A stretch of DNA of 40,632 nucleotides, taken from IMG/VR virus record IMGVR_UViG_2541047846_000008, positions 1-40,632 of that record; one strand, 5' to 3'. Positions 4,287-8,589 of the stretch are shown here, piece after piece. The DNA comes from a virus. Taxonomy: Duplodnaviria; Heunggongvirae; Uroviricota; Caudoviricetes. The position numbers were made by a program, and so were the translations under genes. Positions within the stretch are counted from its first letter, which is position 1; the number at the start of each line of letters is the position of its first letter. The notes below the pieces were generated by a model, which did no database searches, was not told the origin of the DNA, and was given only the letters and a program-made list of their open reading frames with translations.

Positions 4287-4649
4287 TTAATGACCTGCTG
4301 CGCGGAGTTTTCCGTCAGGTTCACCGGCAAGAGTCAGTAATTGTCCCTGGTCTTCCTGCAGAATAGTCAGGCGACCACCGCGATTGACATACATCGGCGT
4401 TTCGGTGGTGTCTTCTTCGGAAATTTTCCCGCGGTTAGTCGGGCGAACATATGAGAGTTTGTGTTTGATTTTCACACGGTTCTCATCAAATGGTTCGATT
4501 TCCAGGTTGAGTGAGACCTTACCTTTGGTTTTCGTGTTCATCACACCTGAAGCGACTTCACTGAGAACTGCGCCGATTTTGGTTTCAAATACGCCGCCGT
4601 CCAGCTCCCCGATAAATGCCTGCACATCAGTACTGCGTTCGCTAGCCAT
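4287..4649 (-). CDS. YfdP-like hypothetical protein (120 aa; start at internal Met MASERS)
   Basis: Track ORF runs to 4835 but the N-terminal 62 codons are Cys/His/Arg-rich and look non-coding; internal ATG gives a 120-aa product. Confidence 0.5.
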   Translation of the reverse strand: MASERSTDVQAFIGELDGGVFETKIGAVLSEVASGVMNTKTKGKVSLNLEIEPFDENRVKIKHKLSYVRPTNRGKISEEDTTETPMYVNRGGRLTILQEDQGQLLTLAGEPDGKLRAAGH

Positions 4650-5520
4650 TTTGCTGCTCCTCATCATATCGACCCTGCAAGGTCGGTTGGTTTCTCCACA
4701 AAACAGAGAAGAACACCTGCGGTGGCAGCCGCCCGGATGGATTGGGTTATGAGCCCGTCGTCCGGTGATGTTCTTCTCTGTTTTGTAAAAAGAGCGGTAC
4801 CAGCCGGAAGCAAGTGTACAAACTGGTACCGCCAAAGCAGTGGCTGTTGTGGTGACCGGTGCTGATCTCCGGCTTGCGGTTATTTCAGACTCTCACGGGC
4901 GTTTAATTGCCCCGCCGAACAGCTCTTTTCCGCAATAGCTGCAATGTCTTTCGCGCATCAGCCTGCGCATTCACCACAACGCTGAGAGCACTTAGCCAGT
5001 TACGGCACCACACTTTGTCGCGGTTCCATAAATGCCCTCATCGTTGCACCCTGGTCTCTTCCCAGGCGTCAAACCGAATCGCCACGCTGGTTAGGCGTCT
5101 TATCAGCATCATCATTGACTTGCACATTCCGGCTACCTGGTTTGTTTGCCCGAGCAAGGAGTGGATTGTCCCCTTTAACGTCACCAGACCGCTAACGACG
5201 CATGTGCCATACGCCGTGTTACAACCAACCTTTCGTTAACAACAGTCTGTTGTTTGTTCAGATAATGATGCTACTAAAAGTAGCAAAAATCAACAACAAA
5301 AAGTAGAAGTGTGTATTTAATTTTTAGTTTTCTATATAACGTTATGAATTAAAAGGTTTTTCACAGATGGGGTGATGTGGCGTAGTTACGTATAGAAAAT
5401 ATCGAGTGTCTTTTGTTTTGGTTTAATTATTAGGTTAATTAGATAGTAATAATTTGGGGGAAAATAGTGGGAACTATGGATACAACGGGTCAGGAACAGT
5501 GTTATTAAGCAGGCTACGAG

Positions 5521-5545
5521 TATAAAACCCGACCGGTTGGTCGGG
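5521..5545 (-). terminator. Rho-independent terminator downstream of the ParA-like gene
   Basis: CCCGACC-GGTT-GGTCGGG hairpin followed on the minus strand by TTTTATA. Confidence 0.6.
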
Positions 5546-5581
5546 CGAGAATTATGTTCGTTCTAAATCATGGTTATTGTA

Positions 5582-6667
5582 TTACAGACACTTGACTACT
5601 GTTGAAACATCAGATTCTAGTGCTTCAATTTGTGCTCTATTAGCTTGGGTCGCCATACCATAGATAGTGTAACTCTTATGCTGCAGCCTACTTAAAGGGC
5701 ATCCCTCATGGTTTATTATTGCTGCAAGAGTATTACCATCTTTGACATTTTGAACTCTCTCGAAAGTAGCCACATTTGTGAACAGATGAGGATGTGTATT
5801 TAACAGGTCATCCGTGATTCTTTTGATCTCTTCTGCATGTGATTTGAATGCTTTTGCTGCATCACTTTCATTAGTTCTTGAGCGGTTTTGTACGAAAAGG
5901 TGTAGTTCAGGTAGTTCGATAAGGTTTTGCTTTGCTTCTTTGTTGAAATCTAAGAACATTTCATCTTGTTCTGACTTGTCAATAGACACTCCATAAATAA
6001 GTTTAACAAGGTTTTTTATTCCGCGAATTGATGCAGCATCGGCAGTGCAAGGGATAATTATTCTATTTGCCGCGACTACTCCCAATTCTGTGTAGCTGGC
6101 AAAACTTGGGTTACAATCAATAAAAAATGTTTTTGCTCTGTCAGAAATGTTTTTATCGGCTTCAAAAGATGCTATTAGATCTACCAGCAAAGATCGGCTT
6201 TTCTTCCATGCTTCTTTTACTGGGGATGAGCCAATGTGAGATATTAAGCGTGAACAGATATCAAGATCGACATCACCAGGAAGAATATATAAGTTCTCTG
6301 GCATTTTTGCATTAACATCATGGGCTCGTACAAAGTAAGAAGATTCATTTCCTAAACGAGACAAAGGAGATTTGCTAAAACGCTCCTTGATATAACCTGC
6401 GATTGTAACATTTCTGTCTCGCAATTTATTTAGATTTTCTTCCCCGGTACCATTGCCACCAAGAATAATTTCTGAAACGTTTGATTGAGGGCATGAGTCA
6501 ATAACCACAACATCTTGATCCGGATGAGATATAGCAAACTCAACGGCAAGATTATATGTAAGAAAAGTTTTTCCTACACCACCTTTGTTGTTCCATACTA
6601 AATATTTTGTATTGGTGGAAATCATATCTGCTACCCCATCTGTCGCTTCAGTACGTTCATTAATCAT
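5582..6667 (-). CDS. ParA/MinD-family P-loop ATPase with ~110-aa C-terminal extension; AT-rich moron next to repressor
   Basis: Deviant Walker A NNKGGVGKT near N-terminus, FIDCNPS and IIIPCTAD motifs; 361 aa; AT-rich; own terminator. Confidence 0.75.
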   Translation of the reverse strand: MINERTEATDGVADMISTNTKYLVWNNKGGVGKTFLTYNLAVEFAISHPDQDVVVIDSCPQSNVSEIILGGNGTGEENLNKLRDRNVTIAGYIKERFSKSPLSRLGNESSYFVRAHDVNAKMPENLYILPGDVDLDICSRLISHIGSSPVKEAWKKSRSLLVDLIASFEADKNISDRAKTFFIDCNPSFASYTELGVVAANRIIIPCTADAASIRGIKNLVKLIYGVSIDKSEQDEMFLDFNKEAKQNLIELPELHLFVQNRSRTNESDAAKAFKSHAEEIKRITDDLLNTHPHLFTNVATFERVQNVKDGNTLAAIINHEGCPLSRLQHKSYTIYGMATQANRAQIEALESDVSTVVKCL

Positions 6668-6901: not shown

Positions 6902-7642
6902 TTAAAGTCGATTATATTTAATCGACTCATGAATCAGTGCCTTACCCATAACATAAAGCTGATCTTGCGACTTCTCATCAATGTACCATTTCTCATAGGC
7001 GGGGTTATCCGAAAGAACAGCTAGTTTGTTGCCTTGCATTTGTAGACGTTTAACATGGAAAGTCTTACCGTAAACGAAAGAGTAAACTCCATCAGTCTGG
7101 AAGTGGCGAACGGAAATGTCGACAAACAATCGATCCCCGGAAACAAGAGTTGGGGACATACTATCTCCATTTACCGTCATAACTTTTATATCATTCTGAG
7201 AACGGTTTCCGAAAAGAGAACGGGCATGTTCAGTTGTGAACTCAATGGCGTAGAGCACATCAACATAGTCTGAAAGCATATAGGTCCCAGGTCCTGCGCT
7301 AACGCTAAGATCCAAAACTTCTATCCTGTATACATCGGGCTTTGTTGGATTGGGGATGCTTGCCATTTCCTTACATTCCTCTCTATCTCCAACACCATAT
7401 TCTAGATATGAAGCTGATACTCCAAGAGCCAACGCAAGTTTACTCATGACAGAGACACGTGGCTTCGCTGCGCCGATTGTGTATCGACGAGCCATTTCAT
7501 ATGTAACGCCCACAAGACTTTTGAGTTGAGTGACAGAGATTCCTTTGATTGTCATCAATTCGTTTAGTCTCTTGGCGAAATCTGGATACTTCTGTTCTTC
7601 TACCATAGGTAGAAGATTACTCACATCACACGCGCTAGTCAT
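6902..7642 (-). CDS. CI-like prophage repressor (N-terminal HTH, C-terminal S24 LexA-like autopeptidase)
   Basis: HTH segment followed by VNGDSMSPTL (S24 catalytic Ser) and downstream Lys; divergent from cro; internal ATG start consistent with a leaderless transcript. Confidence 0.85.
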   Translation of the reverse strand: MTSACDVSNLLPMVEEQKYPDFAKRLNELMTIKGISVTQLKSLVGVTYEMARRYTIGAAKPRVSVMSKLALALGVSASYLEYGVGDREECKEMASIPNPTKPDVYRIEVLDLSVSAGPGTYMLSDYVDVLYAIEFTTEHARSLFGNRSQNDIKVMTVNGDSMSPTLVSGDRLFVDISVRHFQTDGVYSFVYGKTFHVKRLQMQGNKLAVLSDNPAYEKWYIDEKSQDQLYVMGKALIHESIKYNRL

Positions 7643-7644
7643 TT

Positions 7645-7680
7645 CTATTTTAAGTAGTTGCAATTTGCTATTTTAAGTAG
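7645..7680. promoter_or_regulatory. Operator region of the cI/cro switch: two copies of CTATTTTAAGTAG
   Basis: 13-bp partly palindromic direct repeats at about 7645..7657 and 7668..7680 between divergent cI and cro. Confidence 0.5.
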
Positions 7681-7712
7681 CATCATCCCTCTGAATTTCA
7701 GAGGAGAAAGGT

Positions 7713-7976
7713 ATGTCATCTCAAAACTACACAGAGAAAGCAGTAAAGGCTGCGGGAAAGTCTTTATCTGAAGTAGCCCGTCGCTTTGGTTTTAAGTCCA
7801 CTCAATCCGTCGCCAATTGGGTAATTAACAATCAAGTCCCGTCAGAACGGGTTTTACAACTTTGTGAGTTGGGAAACTGGTCCGTGACCCCTCATGAACT
7901 GCGTCCTGATATTTACCCCAATCCAAATGATGGATTACCTGAGTGCTATTCAAAAGTTAGCGGTTCAACTGCGTAA
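7713..7976 (+). CDS. Cro-like HTH regulator (YdaS-family-like)
   Basis: 87-aa ORF with GAGGAG RBS, divergent from cI; HTH-like core. Confidence 0.6.
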   Translation: MSSQNYTEKAVKAAGKSLSEVARRFGFKSTQSVANWVINNQVPSERVLQLCELGNWSVTPHELRPDIYPNPNDGLPECYSKVSGSTA

Positions 7977-8004: not shown

Positions 8005-8589
8005 GTGGGTAAAGAACCTGAATGGAAAGTTGATAAGCAACCAGCATGGCTGGTGGCAGCAATACGAAGAACGATTGCTGATTTACCTCATGGCTATGAG
8101 GAAGCAGCGGAAATTCTTGGTTTGTATAAATCTGATGATATCACCCCAGCGAAAGATCAATTGCATAACAGACTGCGTAGCGGTGGGGATCAAATTTTTC
8201 CACTTGAGTGGGCCATGGTTTTACAGGATGCCAGTGGTACCAGGCATGTAACGGATGCGATAGCGCGTCGTAGTAATGGGGTGTTTGTGCCGCTGGTGGA
8301 CATTGATGACATTGACAATGGTGACATTAATCAGCGGCTGATGGAGTCAATAGAATGGATTGGCAAGCATTCCCAGTACTTACGCAAGGCAACTGCTGAT
8401 GGAGTTATTGACCAGGCTGAGCGTGAGCAAATCGAAGAGAACAGCTACCAAGTAATGGCGAAGTGGCAGGAGCATTTAACACTGTTATTTCGTGTTTTTT
8501 GTGCGCCGGAAAAGAGTAACGCCCGCGAGTGTGCAGCTCCGGGCGTCGTGGCGTCGATTGCTTCTGGTTGTGGAGAAACTAACGCATGA
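8005..8589 (+). CDS. YdaT-like / CII-type early regulator (GTG start)
   Basis: 194-aa ORF directly after the cro-like gene, the lambdoid cII position. Confidence 0.45.

Follow-up and report, generated by a model that had tools for sequence, protein, structure and literature searches.

Conserved, structured non-coding RNA modules between pL and yfdP in a lambdoid prophage of Escherichia coli

We analysed the gap between the gene for a ParA-like ATPase and yfdP, the first early-left gene, in a 40,632-nucleotide (nt) stretch of viral DNA (IMG/VR virus record IMGVR_UViG_2541047846_000008, positions 1 to 40,632; hereafter the window), which is an SfV/mEp460-like lambdoid prophage of E. coli. An earlier note on this DNA had described positions 4650-5581 as an apparently non-coding leader without a gene for an N-like protein and had proposed that the interval might instead hold RNA-based antitermination of the put type known from phage HK022, a small RNA, or unrecognised small proteins. 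We found that the gap contains the operator and promoter of the early-left operon and, downstream of them on the minus strand, two conserved and structured RNA modules, here called C and B, which precede an intrinsic terminator, a long hairpin and yfdP. The features of the locus are as follows, in positions of the window.

5265-5311: operator region oL, which repeats the cI/cro operator region oR at 7640-7686 in inverted orientation (47 nt, 79%)
5265-5293, minus strand: promoter pL, with -35 TTGATT (5293-5288), a 17-nt spacer and -10 CATCAT (5270-5265)
5228-5050, minus strand: RNA module C, about 180 nt, with several helices
4981-5049, minus strand: spacer between C and B, ending in the 12-nt motif that flanks B on its 5' side (4992-4981, AGUGCUCUCAGC)
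4980-4843, minus strand: RNA module B, cloverleaf-shaped and tRNA-like
4978-4972 with 4854-4848, minus strand: closing stem of B, UGUGGUG/CACCACA, 7 bp
4968-4953, minus strand: hairpin 1 of B, GCGCA-GGCUGA-UGCGC
4952-4876, minus strand: variable insert of B
4873-4855, minus strand: hairpin 2 of B, GCCGG-AGAUCAGCA-CCGGU
4833-4787, minus strand: predicted intrinsic terminator tL, with a 13-bp stem (4833-4821 with 4805-4793), a 15-nt loop and CUUUUU (4792-4787)
4791-4693, minus strand: perfect 25-bp hairpin with arms 4791-4767 and 4717-4693 and a branched tip
4650-4692, minus strand: proximal 5' untranslated region of yfdP, with a small hairpin (4687-4668) and the Shine-Dalgarno sequence GAGGAG (4662-4657)
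4287-4649, minus strand: yfdP-type first early-left gene, 120 amino acids (aa), PHROG 204 (E = 1e-49), named yfdP in RefSeq
5546-5527, minus strand: intrinsic terminator of the transcript of cI and the ParA-like gene (rex position), directly after the ParA-like stop codon
5312-5526: AT-rich spacer, G-skewed, about 32-37% G+C
5582-6667, minus strand: gene for the ParA-like ATPase, PHROG 164
6902-7663, minus strand: cI-type repressor gene
7713-7976: cro
8005-8589: cII-like gene

The operator and promoter were recognised by repeat homology within the immunity region. The palindromic operator TGCTACTAAAAGTAGCA at 5269-5285 matches TGCTATTTTAAGTAGCA at 7666-7682, and pR has the same layout as pL (TTGCAA at 7658-7663, 17 nt, CATCAT at 7681-7686). 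The pL promoter of HK022 has the same CATCAT -10 element, with its start 7 nt downstream (numbering checked against the residues in PMC9378689), and we infer a transcription start at about 5258 in the window. Since oL and pL lie at 5265-5311, the transcribed leader extends only from 5258 to 4650 (609 nt), and the earlier picture of a single leader beginning at the terminator of the ParA-like gene had to be given up, with pL located inside the gap at 5265-5293.

The only open reading frames (ORFs) inside 4650-5581 are an upstream extension of yfdP (to 4835), a 47-aa ORF and a 110-aa ORF on the plus strand (4907-5239). None of the three had a Pfam or PHROGs match, no RefSeq/PGAP annotation covers the gap in identical prophages, and the PHROG alignment for yfdP starts at residue 1 of the product that begins at ATG-4649. 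In 10 of 11 diverged homologues of this DNA, 1-5 stop codons break the 110-aa frame, and we saw no conserved ORF that fills the gap. The leftward early operon, which reads yfdP, yfdQ, yfdR, two genes of unknown function, exonuclease and xis, yielded no N-like protein: no N family was found among its products and no such ORF near pL. The earlier note was therefore right about the gap between the ParA-like gene and yfdP, about the missing N and about RNA elements in place of proteins, C and B being structured, conserved and supported by covariation, while its mention of unrecognised small proteins became unlikely given the broken 110-aa frame and the absent Pfam and PHROG matches.

Read on the minus strand, the leader has the order pL, C, flank motif, B, terminator, 25-bp hairpin, and ribosome-binding site and ATG of yfdP. 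The leader differs from random sequence: its minus strand at 4640-5260 is predicted to fold with z = -6.1 relative to shuffled sequences. Of 5426 complete E. coli genomes, 3084 have the segment 4650-5239 in conserved form, as do 125 phage records and 589 plasmid records, the latter being mostly non-mobilizable and 84-105 kb long among the rows listed. Its identity is 95-99% in thousands of E. coli prophages, and it is also found in mEp460, cdtI, Stx2 phages and others. Two sub-segments, 4845-4993 and 5053-5228, separately match phage P1, relatives of P1 and mostly non-mobilizable plasmids of 84-105 kb, at different places. Both lie in the ban operon of P1, on the transcribed strand and directly after tRNA genes, and this orientation identifies the minus strand of the window as the sense strand.

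The modules are combined in different ways. We encountered the architectures C-B-terminator-hairpin-yfdP, C-(another allele)-terminator-hairpin-yfdP and B-terminator-hairpin-yfdP as well as C alone and B alone, with the terminator, the hairpin and yfdP forming a constant block across related architectures. One group of phages (L093 type) has pL, B at about +7 and the same terminator, hairpin and yfdP, and carries neither C nor N, which indicates that C is not required for passing the terminator. The phage and RefSeq records shown bear no RNA annotation over these segments and list either nothing or hypothetical proteins. Known RNA families, a further idea of the earlier note, were not recovered: Rfam 15 gave no match at the gathering threshold in the whole window, and only chance-level matches at E up to 10 for the region and for B and C individually. 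We also found no description of B or C in the searchable literature by keywords or by the exact B core sequence, an earlier unsearchable description being conceivable. A preprint on Pas small RNAs (sRNAs) is about late-region sRNAs, and a paper on the small non-coding RNAs of phage P22 has nothing on B or C.

Across the B family the frame consists of the closing stem, a 3-nt linker (AAU), hairpin 1, a variable region of 12 to about 200 nt, and hairpin 2 (GCCGG-AGAUCAGCA-CCGGC), which directly adjoins the closing stem on its 3' strand. From this frame we built a covariance model (R1), which scored the window copy at 70.9 bits (E = 3e-18) and found 98 B copies in 88 sources, more divergent ones included. 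Within these 98 copies 98.3% of cells pair and 11 of 17 pairs show compensatory changes, a result reached by none of 500 shuffles, and sliding the partners against each other reduced pairing to 29-45%. One-sided changes in the 3' strand of the closing stem are all G-U compatible on the minus strand only (UA to UG, GC to GU). The same topology results from minimum-free-energy folding of the window copy and three further types, with a four-way, cloverleaf-like junction in the larger copies and no central arm in a minimal copy of 71 nt.

The predicted fold resembles that of a tRNA. The 7-bp acceptor-like stem is stacked on the 5-bp T-like stem with no nucleotide between them, giving the 12 bp of tRNA acceptor/T-arm geometry, and the loop of the D-like hairpin 1 (GCUGAU) is complementary to the T-like loop (AUCAGC). 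Such loop-loop complementarity amounts to at least 4 nt (4-6) in nearly all parsed copies with the usual hairpin 1 loop. The modelled B thus has features expected of a tRNA-like RNase P substrate, namely a 12-bp coaxial stack and two loops, complementary in most copies, that could form an elbow, and on these models it is a tRNA mimic in which a hypervariable domain takes the place of the anticodon arm.

The 40-nt core of B is present in phage HK620, Klebsiella phage ZC2 (48 kb), the Ackermannviridae phage Magnus and Escherichia phage PDP46, and an exact-pattern scan of IMG/VR returned at least 120 loci. Exact copies of the 24-nt 5' core occur in 55 species-representative genomes, all 55 of them with a full-length copy, including many Enterobacterales, Aeromonas, Janthinobacterium, Massilia, Undibacterium, Xenophilus, Marinobacterium, Moraxellaceae and Lysobacterales. 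Wherever tRNA genes are present in the fetched loci they adjoin B on the same strand, with a spacing typical of tRNA arrays: there is no gap in Massilia (tRNA-Gly, B, tRNA-Pro), and B stands 4 nt ahead of tRNA-Pro in Aeromonas. P1 (NC_005856), which carries a further subtype, has two B-type RNAs at 69817-69921 and 70078-70204 (locus L003 5818-5922 and 6079-6205), after tRNA-Thr on the ban-operon strand, and the minus-strand ORFs plp and upl annotated over or beside them may be mis-annotated RNA genes.

The positions of individual copies are informative about transcription. TANNNT hexamers peak exactly 6 nt before the first G of B (13 copies, about 9%, versus 0-3 at other distances), and a TANNNT ending 6 nt before the first G of GUGGUG marks this G1 as the transcription start in those copies. 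The HK620 copy (locus L004 1433-1529) belongs to the late leader, where it follows qut and precedes tQ, the annotated late terminator. Since Q must overcome this downstream terminator, B is unlikely to be an antiterminator, and pR' transcripts that stop at tQ would contain it. The ZC2 copy (locus L006 1433-1529) runs antisense to the structural genes on either side of it and occupies a 530-bp gap upstream of the major tail gene, a placement that implies a separate transcription unit.

What varies in B is the insert, with at least 109 unrelated types of 29-160 nt among 150 unique copies. At least 36 close relatives of the prophage have the same closing stem and flanks around another interior; in the relatives L235, L230, L218, L196 and L192 a different RNA interior takes the place of B at the same site within the closing stem GUUGUGGU...CCACCACAAC. 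These differing interiors within a constant stem indicate that cassettes are exchanged inside it. The insert of one variant (L120 1797-1970, L250 3704-3877) resembles a tRNA D-arm plus T-arm (GGUAGAGC ... GGUUCGAUUCC), and k-mers in the inserts overall show only a mild excess of GCUAAGC. RydB of E. coli K-12 (rydB, locus L293 1214-1281) was considered as a family member and rejected: its hairpin GCCGGAGAUAAGCGCCGG is identical to hairpin 2 of B at 16 of 18 positions and the rest is unmatched, the B model giving a local match only (E = 0.08).

Module C has stem I (5217-5195), a long branched stem II, a hairpin with a 7-nt loop, a possible pseudoknot and a terminal hairpin. From homologues collected at 48-99% identity we used 12 diverged representatives, in which 95.4% of cells pair, with 33 compensatory cells versus 12.7 in shuffles (none of 500 reaching the observed value); slid partners pair at 34-42%. 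Several invariant segments of C can pair locally or over long range in RNAalifold, and the long-range alternative is inseparable from the local stem I, the columns concerned being invariant. Beyond the prophages, C is found in Uetakevirus phages and in P1, there directly after tRNA-Ile and about 2.3 kb from Pban; in P1 and at another locus it follows a tRNA(CAU) gene far from a promoter.

Given that the phage lacks N and that C, encoded on the sense strand, begins about 30 nt downstream of the inferred pL start and ahead of the terminator at 4833-4787, C might be a put-like, cis-acting antiterminator that would bind RNA polymerase at the beta' zinc-binding domain, read through this and later terminators, and replace N. 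HK022 putL and putR are similarly placed a little downstream of pL in an N-less lambdoid phage, ahead of terminators, and are likewise highly conserved folded RNAs. A 2025 paper on the related N-less phage LLS offers put use by N-less yfdP/Q/R-type lambdoids as speculation only (PMC12315714). Of the polymerase-binding core of put, which comprises A9-G14, C26-G35, the stem II base and A63-U65, nineteen positions are identical in C, in the three blocks ACGGCG (A9-G14), CAUGCGUCG (C26-G34) plus AGCG (A37-G40), and CGG.AAUG.UGC, with a U for G35 and a 7-nt instead of an 11-nt spacer, although the local alignment is non-significant. These putL segments form the polymerase-binding platform in a cryo-EM structure, and the G35U mutant of HK022 put kept 70% of antitermination activity (PMC9378689). 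The U28-equivalent pairing partner, moreover, is mismatched in 5 of the 12 representative C homologues.

Several results argue against a put-like role. A put covariance model (R2), built from eight HK022-type put RNAs and run with filters off, gave no match at 5050-5228 or elsewhere in the window (best E = 1.2, at an unrelated site), and a Smith-Waterman alignment of putL with the leader was not significant, 186 of 1000 shuffles scoring as well. By sequence, C therefore falls outside the put family. It has about 180 nt and at least six helices where put has about 74 nt and two stems, it is without the A3-G7/C15-U19 triplex arm, its CAUG segment is predicted to be paired, and no second copy stands behind pR in the window as a counterpart of putR. 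The position ahead of a terminator and close to a promoter is not true of the P1 copy, which lies deep in the ban operon beside a tRNA gene, as an RNA gene in an array, and relatives of the prophage carry the same terminator, hairpin and yfdP block without C. Of the put-like antitermination put forward earlier, the three short core blocks common to C and put stand, while the match to canonical put does not. We regard a put-like action of C as a minority hypothesis of modest probability.

A second possibility, which we regard as somewhat less probable still, concerns the flank of B. The consensus of this flank over 145 B copies is AGUGCUCUUUCCGU, and TGCTCTTT, with at most one mismatch, stands at a fixed distance before B in 58 of them (40%), distant taxa included. 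It begins with UGCUCUUU, which we take to be the first 8 nt of the E. coli rrn boxA (UGCUCUUUAACAA), and could therefore be a boxA that loads NusB/NusE and the Nus complex and shields the untranslated RNA from Rho. The window copy, UGCUCUCA at 4990-4983, is degenerate, the motif continues CCGU rather than AACAA, and promoter-bearing copies of B that start at G1 are without it, the flank being typical of the other copies. Nus/boxA complexes are known to oppose Rho rather than strong intrinsic terminators, and the motif is equally explicable as a leader determinant for RNase P or RNase E or as a recombination joint. When checked against the N/nut pattern, the degenerate UGCUCUCA is followed by the closing stem of B instead of a short boxB-type hairpin. 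A 609-nt untranslated leader would nevertheless be a natural substrate for Rho, and boxA-mediated protection of long non-coding transcripts from Rho has been documented for CRISPR arrays (PMC7665894).

Downstream of B, the terminator tL has a free energy of -21.5 kcal/mol (z = -3.6) and the stem and U-tract of an intrinsic terminator; a simple terminator scan missed it because of the long loop. The hairpin behind it reaches -51.2 kcal/mol (z = -8.3, not equalled in 200 shuffles), and its 25 consecutive predicted pairs exceed the 20 bp of uninterrupted duplex used as the threshold for an RNase III site, so that cleavage by this enzyme may be expected from duplex length. The hairpin tip carries the 13-mer GGGCUCAUAACCC (4756-4744, minus strand), which we take to be identical to the anticodon stem-loop of the E. 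coli initiator tRNA including its three G-C pairs; the sequence on either side of the 13-mer does not resemble a tRNA.

Taken together, we favour the view that the interval between pL and yfdP houses stable, processed non-coding RNAs in a slot that precedes a leaky terminator, comparable to the slot that holds tRNAs in other phages, and that the leader strings together structured non-coding RNA modules, each mobile on its own; we hold both parts to be probable. Upon loss of the repressor, pL would yield mainly a short C-B transcript ending at the terminator. Enzymes of tRNA maturation could free B from it as a stable small RNA, with RNase P cutting before G4977 and the 3' end being trimmed. 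The frame of B would then provide stability and recognition by a conserved host factor, with the insert as the effector of any function in trans, and C might act in cis as a leader element or be another stable RNA. Those polymerases that pass the terminator would express yfdP through xis, and RNase III would cut the long hairpin and part the mRNA from the RNA modules, translation proceeding from yfdP onward.

A number of observations weigh against this view. With its 13-bp stem the terminator looks strong, which sits poorly with the readthrough that an operon ending in xis would need, above all in phages without C and N. The discrete C and B RNAs and their processing sites are predictions from sequence. 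ARAGORN found no tRNA or tmRNA gene over the window, and in Rfam B had no tRNA match, not even with E allowed up to 10; its T-like loop is 9 nt long instead of 7, and CCA follows the stem in only about one third of the B copies. Given the loop size, the incomplete occurrence of CCA and the lack of a match by tRNA finders, recognition of B by RNase P is plausible at most. Because B was collected by its core, its 5' half was fixed and the covariation there comes from few divergent copies. Some of the distant genomes are metagenome-assembled genomes or short scaffolds of other phyla, in which phage contigs may be mis-binned. A search within the window for antisense targets of the B insert, finally, returned 11-nt matches inside the range of the shuffle null.

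It is improbable that the conserved blocks act as DNA, for example as a recombination or insertion site, a miniature transposable element or a replication signal. The blocks do occur in many unrelated genomic contexts, and the exchange of B-type cassettes takes place precisely within a 9-bp inverted repeat, GTTGTGGTG...CACCACAAC. However, the pairing is strand-specific, with G-U pairs on the minus strand only, the blocks are constantly co-oriented with tRNA genes, promoters are placed for a start at G1, and the joints show no target duplication; no recombinase was noted in the annotated neighbourhoods looked at, where no systematic check was made. Least credible of all is that the 110-aa ORF, the 47-aa ORF or the yfdP extension encodes a small protein, for although these ORFs are present and annotators of mEp460 called two plus-strand hypothetical proteins over the hairpin, B and C (mEp460_036 and mEp460_037, locus L001 4123-4266 and 4308-4676), their frames are not conserved, substitutions track RNA pairing rather than codons, the B insert is swapped wholesale between relatives, and the interrupted 110-aa frame, the lack of protein families and the blank PGAP annotation all speak against it.

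We place C and B in a kind of element that is already known, namely structured or tRNA-like stable RNAs carried by phages. The closest analogue is put for C, and for B the T4 species 1 and 2 RNAs and tRNA-like domains in general. Like B, the phage T4 species 1 and 2 RNAs (rnaC and rnaD) are encoded as stable-RNA genes co-oriented within a phage tRNA array and have tRNA-like ends, rnaC possessing a T-arm and an acceptor and rnaD ending in CCA. To our knowledge, their function is still unknown. Homology to them was rejected, as R1 with filters off found nothing in the T4 tRNA region (best E = 0.26, outside rnaC and rnaD), and B differs in its ultra-conserved frame, its hypervariable insert and its far wider host range. 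B resembles tRNAs, the tRNA-like domain of tmRNA and YrlA in the 12-bp stack of its 7-bp closing stem and 5-bp 3' hairpin, in the 3-nt linker that precedes its 5' hairpin, in loops whose complementarity may allow an elbow, and in the NCCA that often follows the stem, and like tRNAs it sits in tRNA arrays; in contrast to these RNAs, it is recognised neither by ARAGORN nor by the Rfam tRNA, tmRNA or YrlA models, its T-like loop is enlarged, an anticodon arm is missing, and it stands in no Ro/Rsr or SmpB context. The layout as a whole recalls phage lambda, where the pL-nutL-N leader and the pR' 6S transcript to tR' also combine a promoter, an untranslated structured leader and a limiting terminator. 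The RNase III site of the lambda pL leader is likewise a long duplex ahead of the first gene, and the HK620 copy of B in the pR'-to-tQ leader parallels the 6S transcript. Unlike lambda, the prophage has no N and no evident boxB, and its cargo is two mobile RNA genes instead of a protein-binding nut site.

The conservation of the B frame at the level of tRNAs across bacterial classes, combined with a hypervariable cargo, points to a conserved host factor that reads the frame. We can envisage, as a speculative extension, that B is a natural tRNA-scaffold platform whose near-invariant frame is read by a universal host machine, possibly RNase P, the CCA-adding enzyme, EF-Tu or the ribosome, and displays an exchanged effector insert, with C as a put-related polymerase-binding RNA that could also serve these untranslated RNA arrays. 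The inserts might be decoys or inhibitors of host defence or RNA-metabolism proteins, or base-pairing regulators. If so, the locus would be an arms-race locus in RNA, in which phages from Enterobacterales to Betaproteobacteria swap cassettes within one closing stem, and B would be a natural counterpart of the engineered tRNA scaffolds used for RNA expression. Independently of this, re-annotation as RNA genes is due, since the stretch is present in over half of the complete E. coli genomes and in Stx-converting phages; it also concerns P1, P7, HK620 and many Klebsiella and Salmonella phages, in which these segments are now blank or covered by doubtful ORFs (plp/upl in P1, mEp460_036/037). For early-left expression in N-less yfdP/Q/R lambdoids, for which the literature offers the put guess only, C, the flank motif, the terminator and the hairpin are now defined.

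The part of the gap upstream of pL belongs to the immunity region. As oL and pL lie beyond the ParA-like gene, this gene and its terminator (5546-5527; an 8-bp stem with 6 G-C pairs, a 4-nt loop and a T run) occupy the position of lambda rexAB. The ParA-like ATPase gave no defence-system match in PADLOC and is possibly a moron expressed in the lysogen. A search of the spacer 5312-5526 against Rfam returned no match, and no feature was identified there. At least 80% of the query 4600-5600, which includes the spacer, is present in only 71 E. coli genomes, the other matching genomes having part of it, and the spacer appears to be carried by a minority of related prophages.

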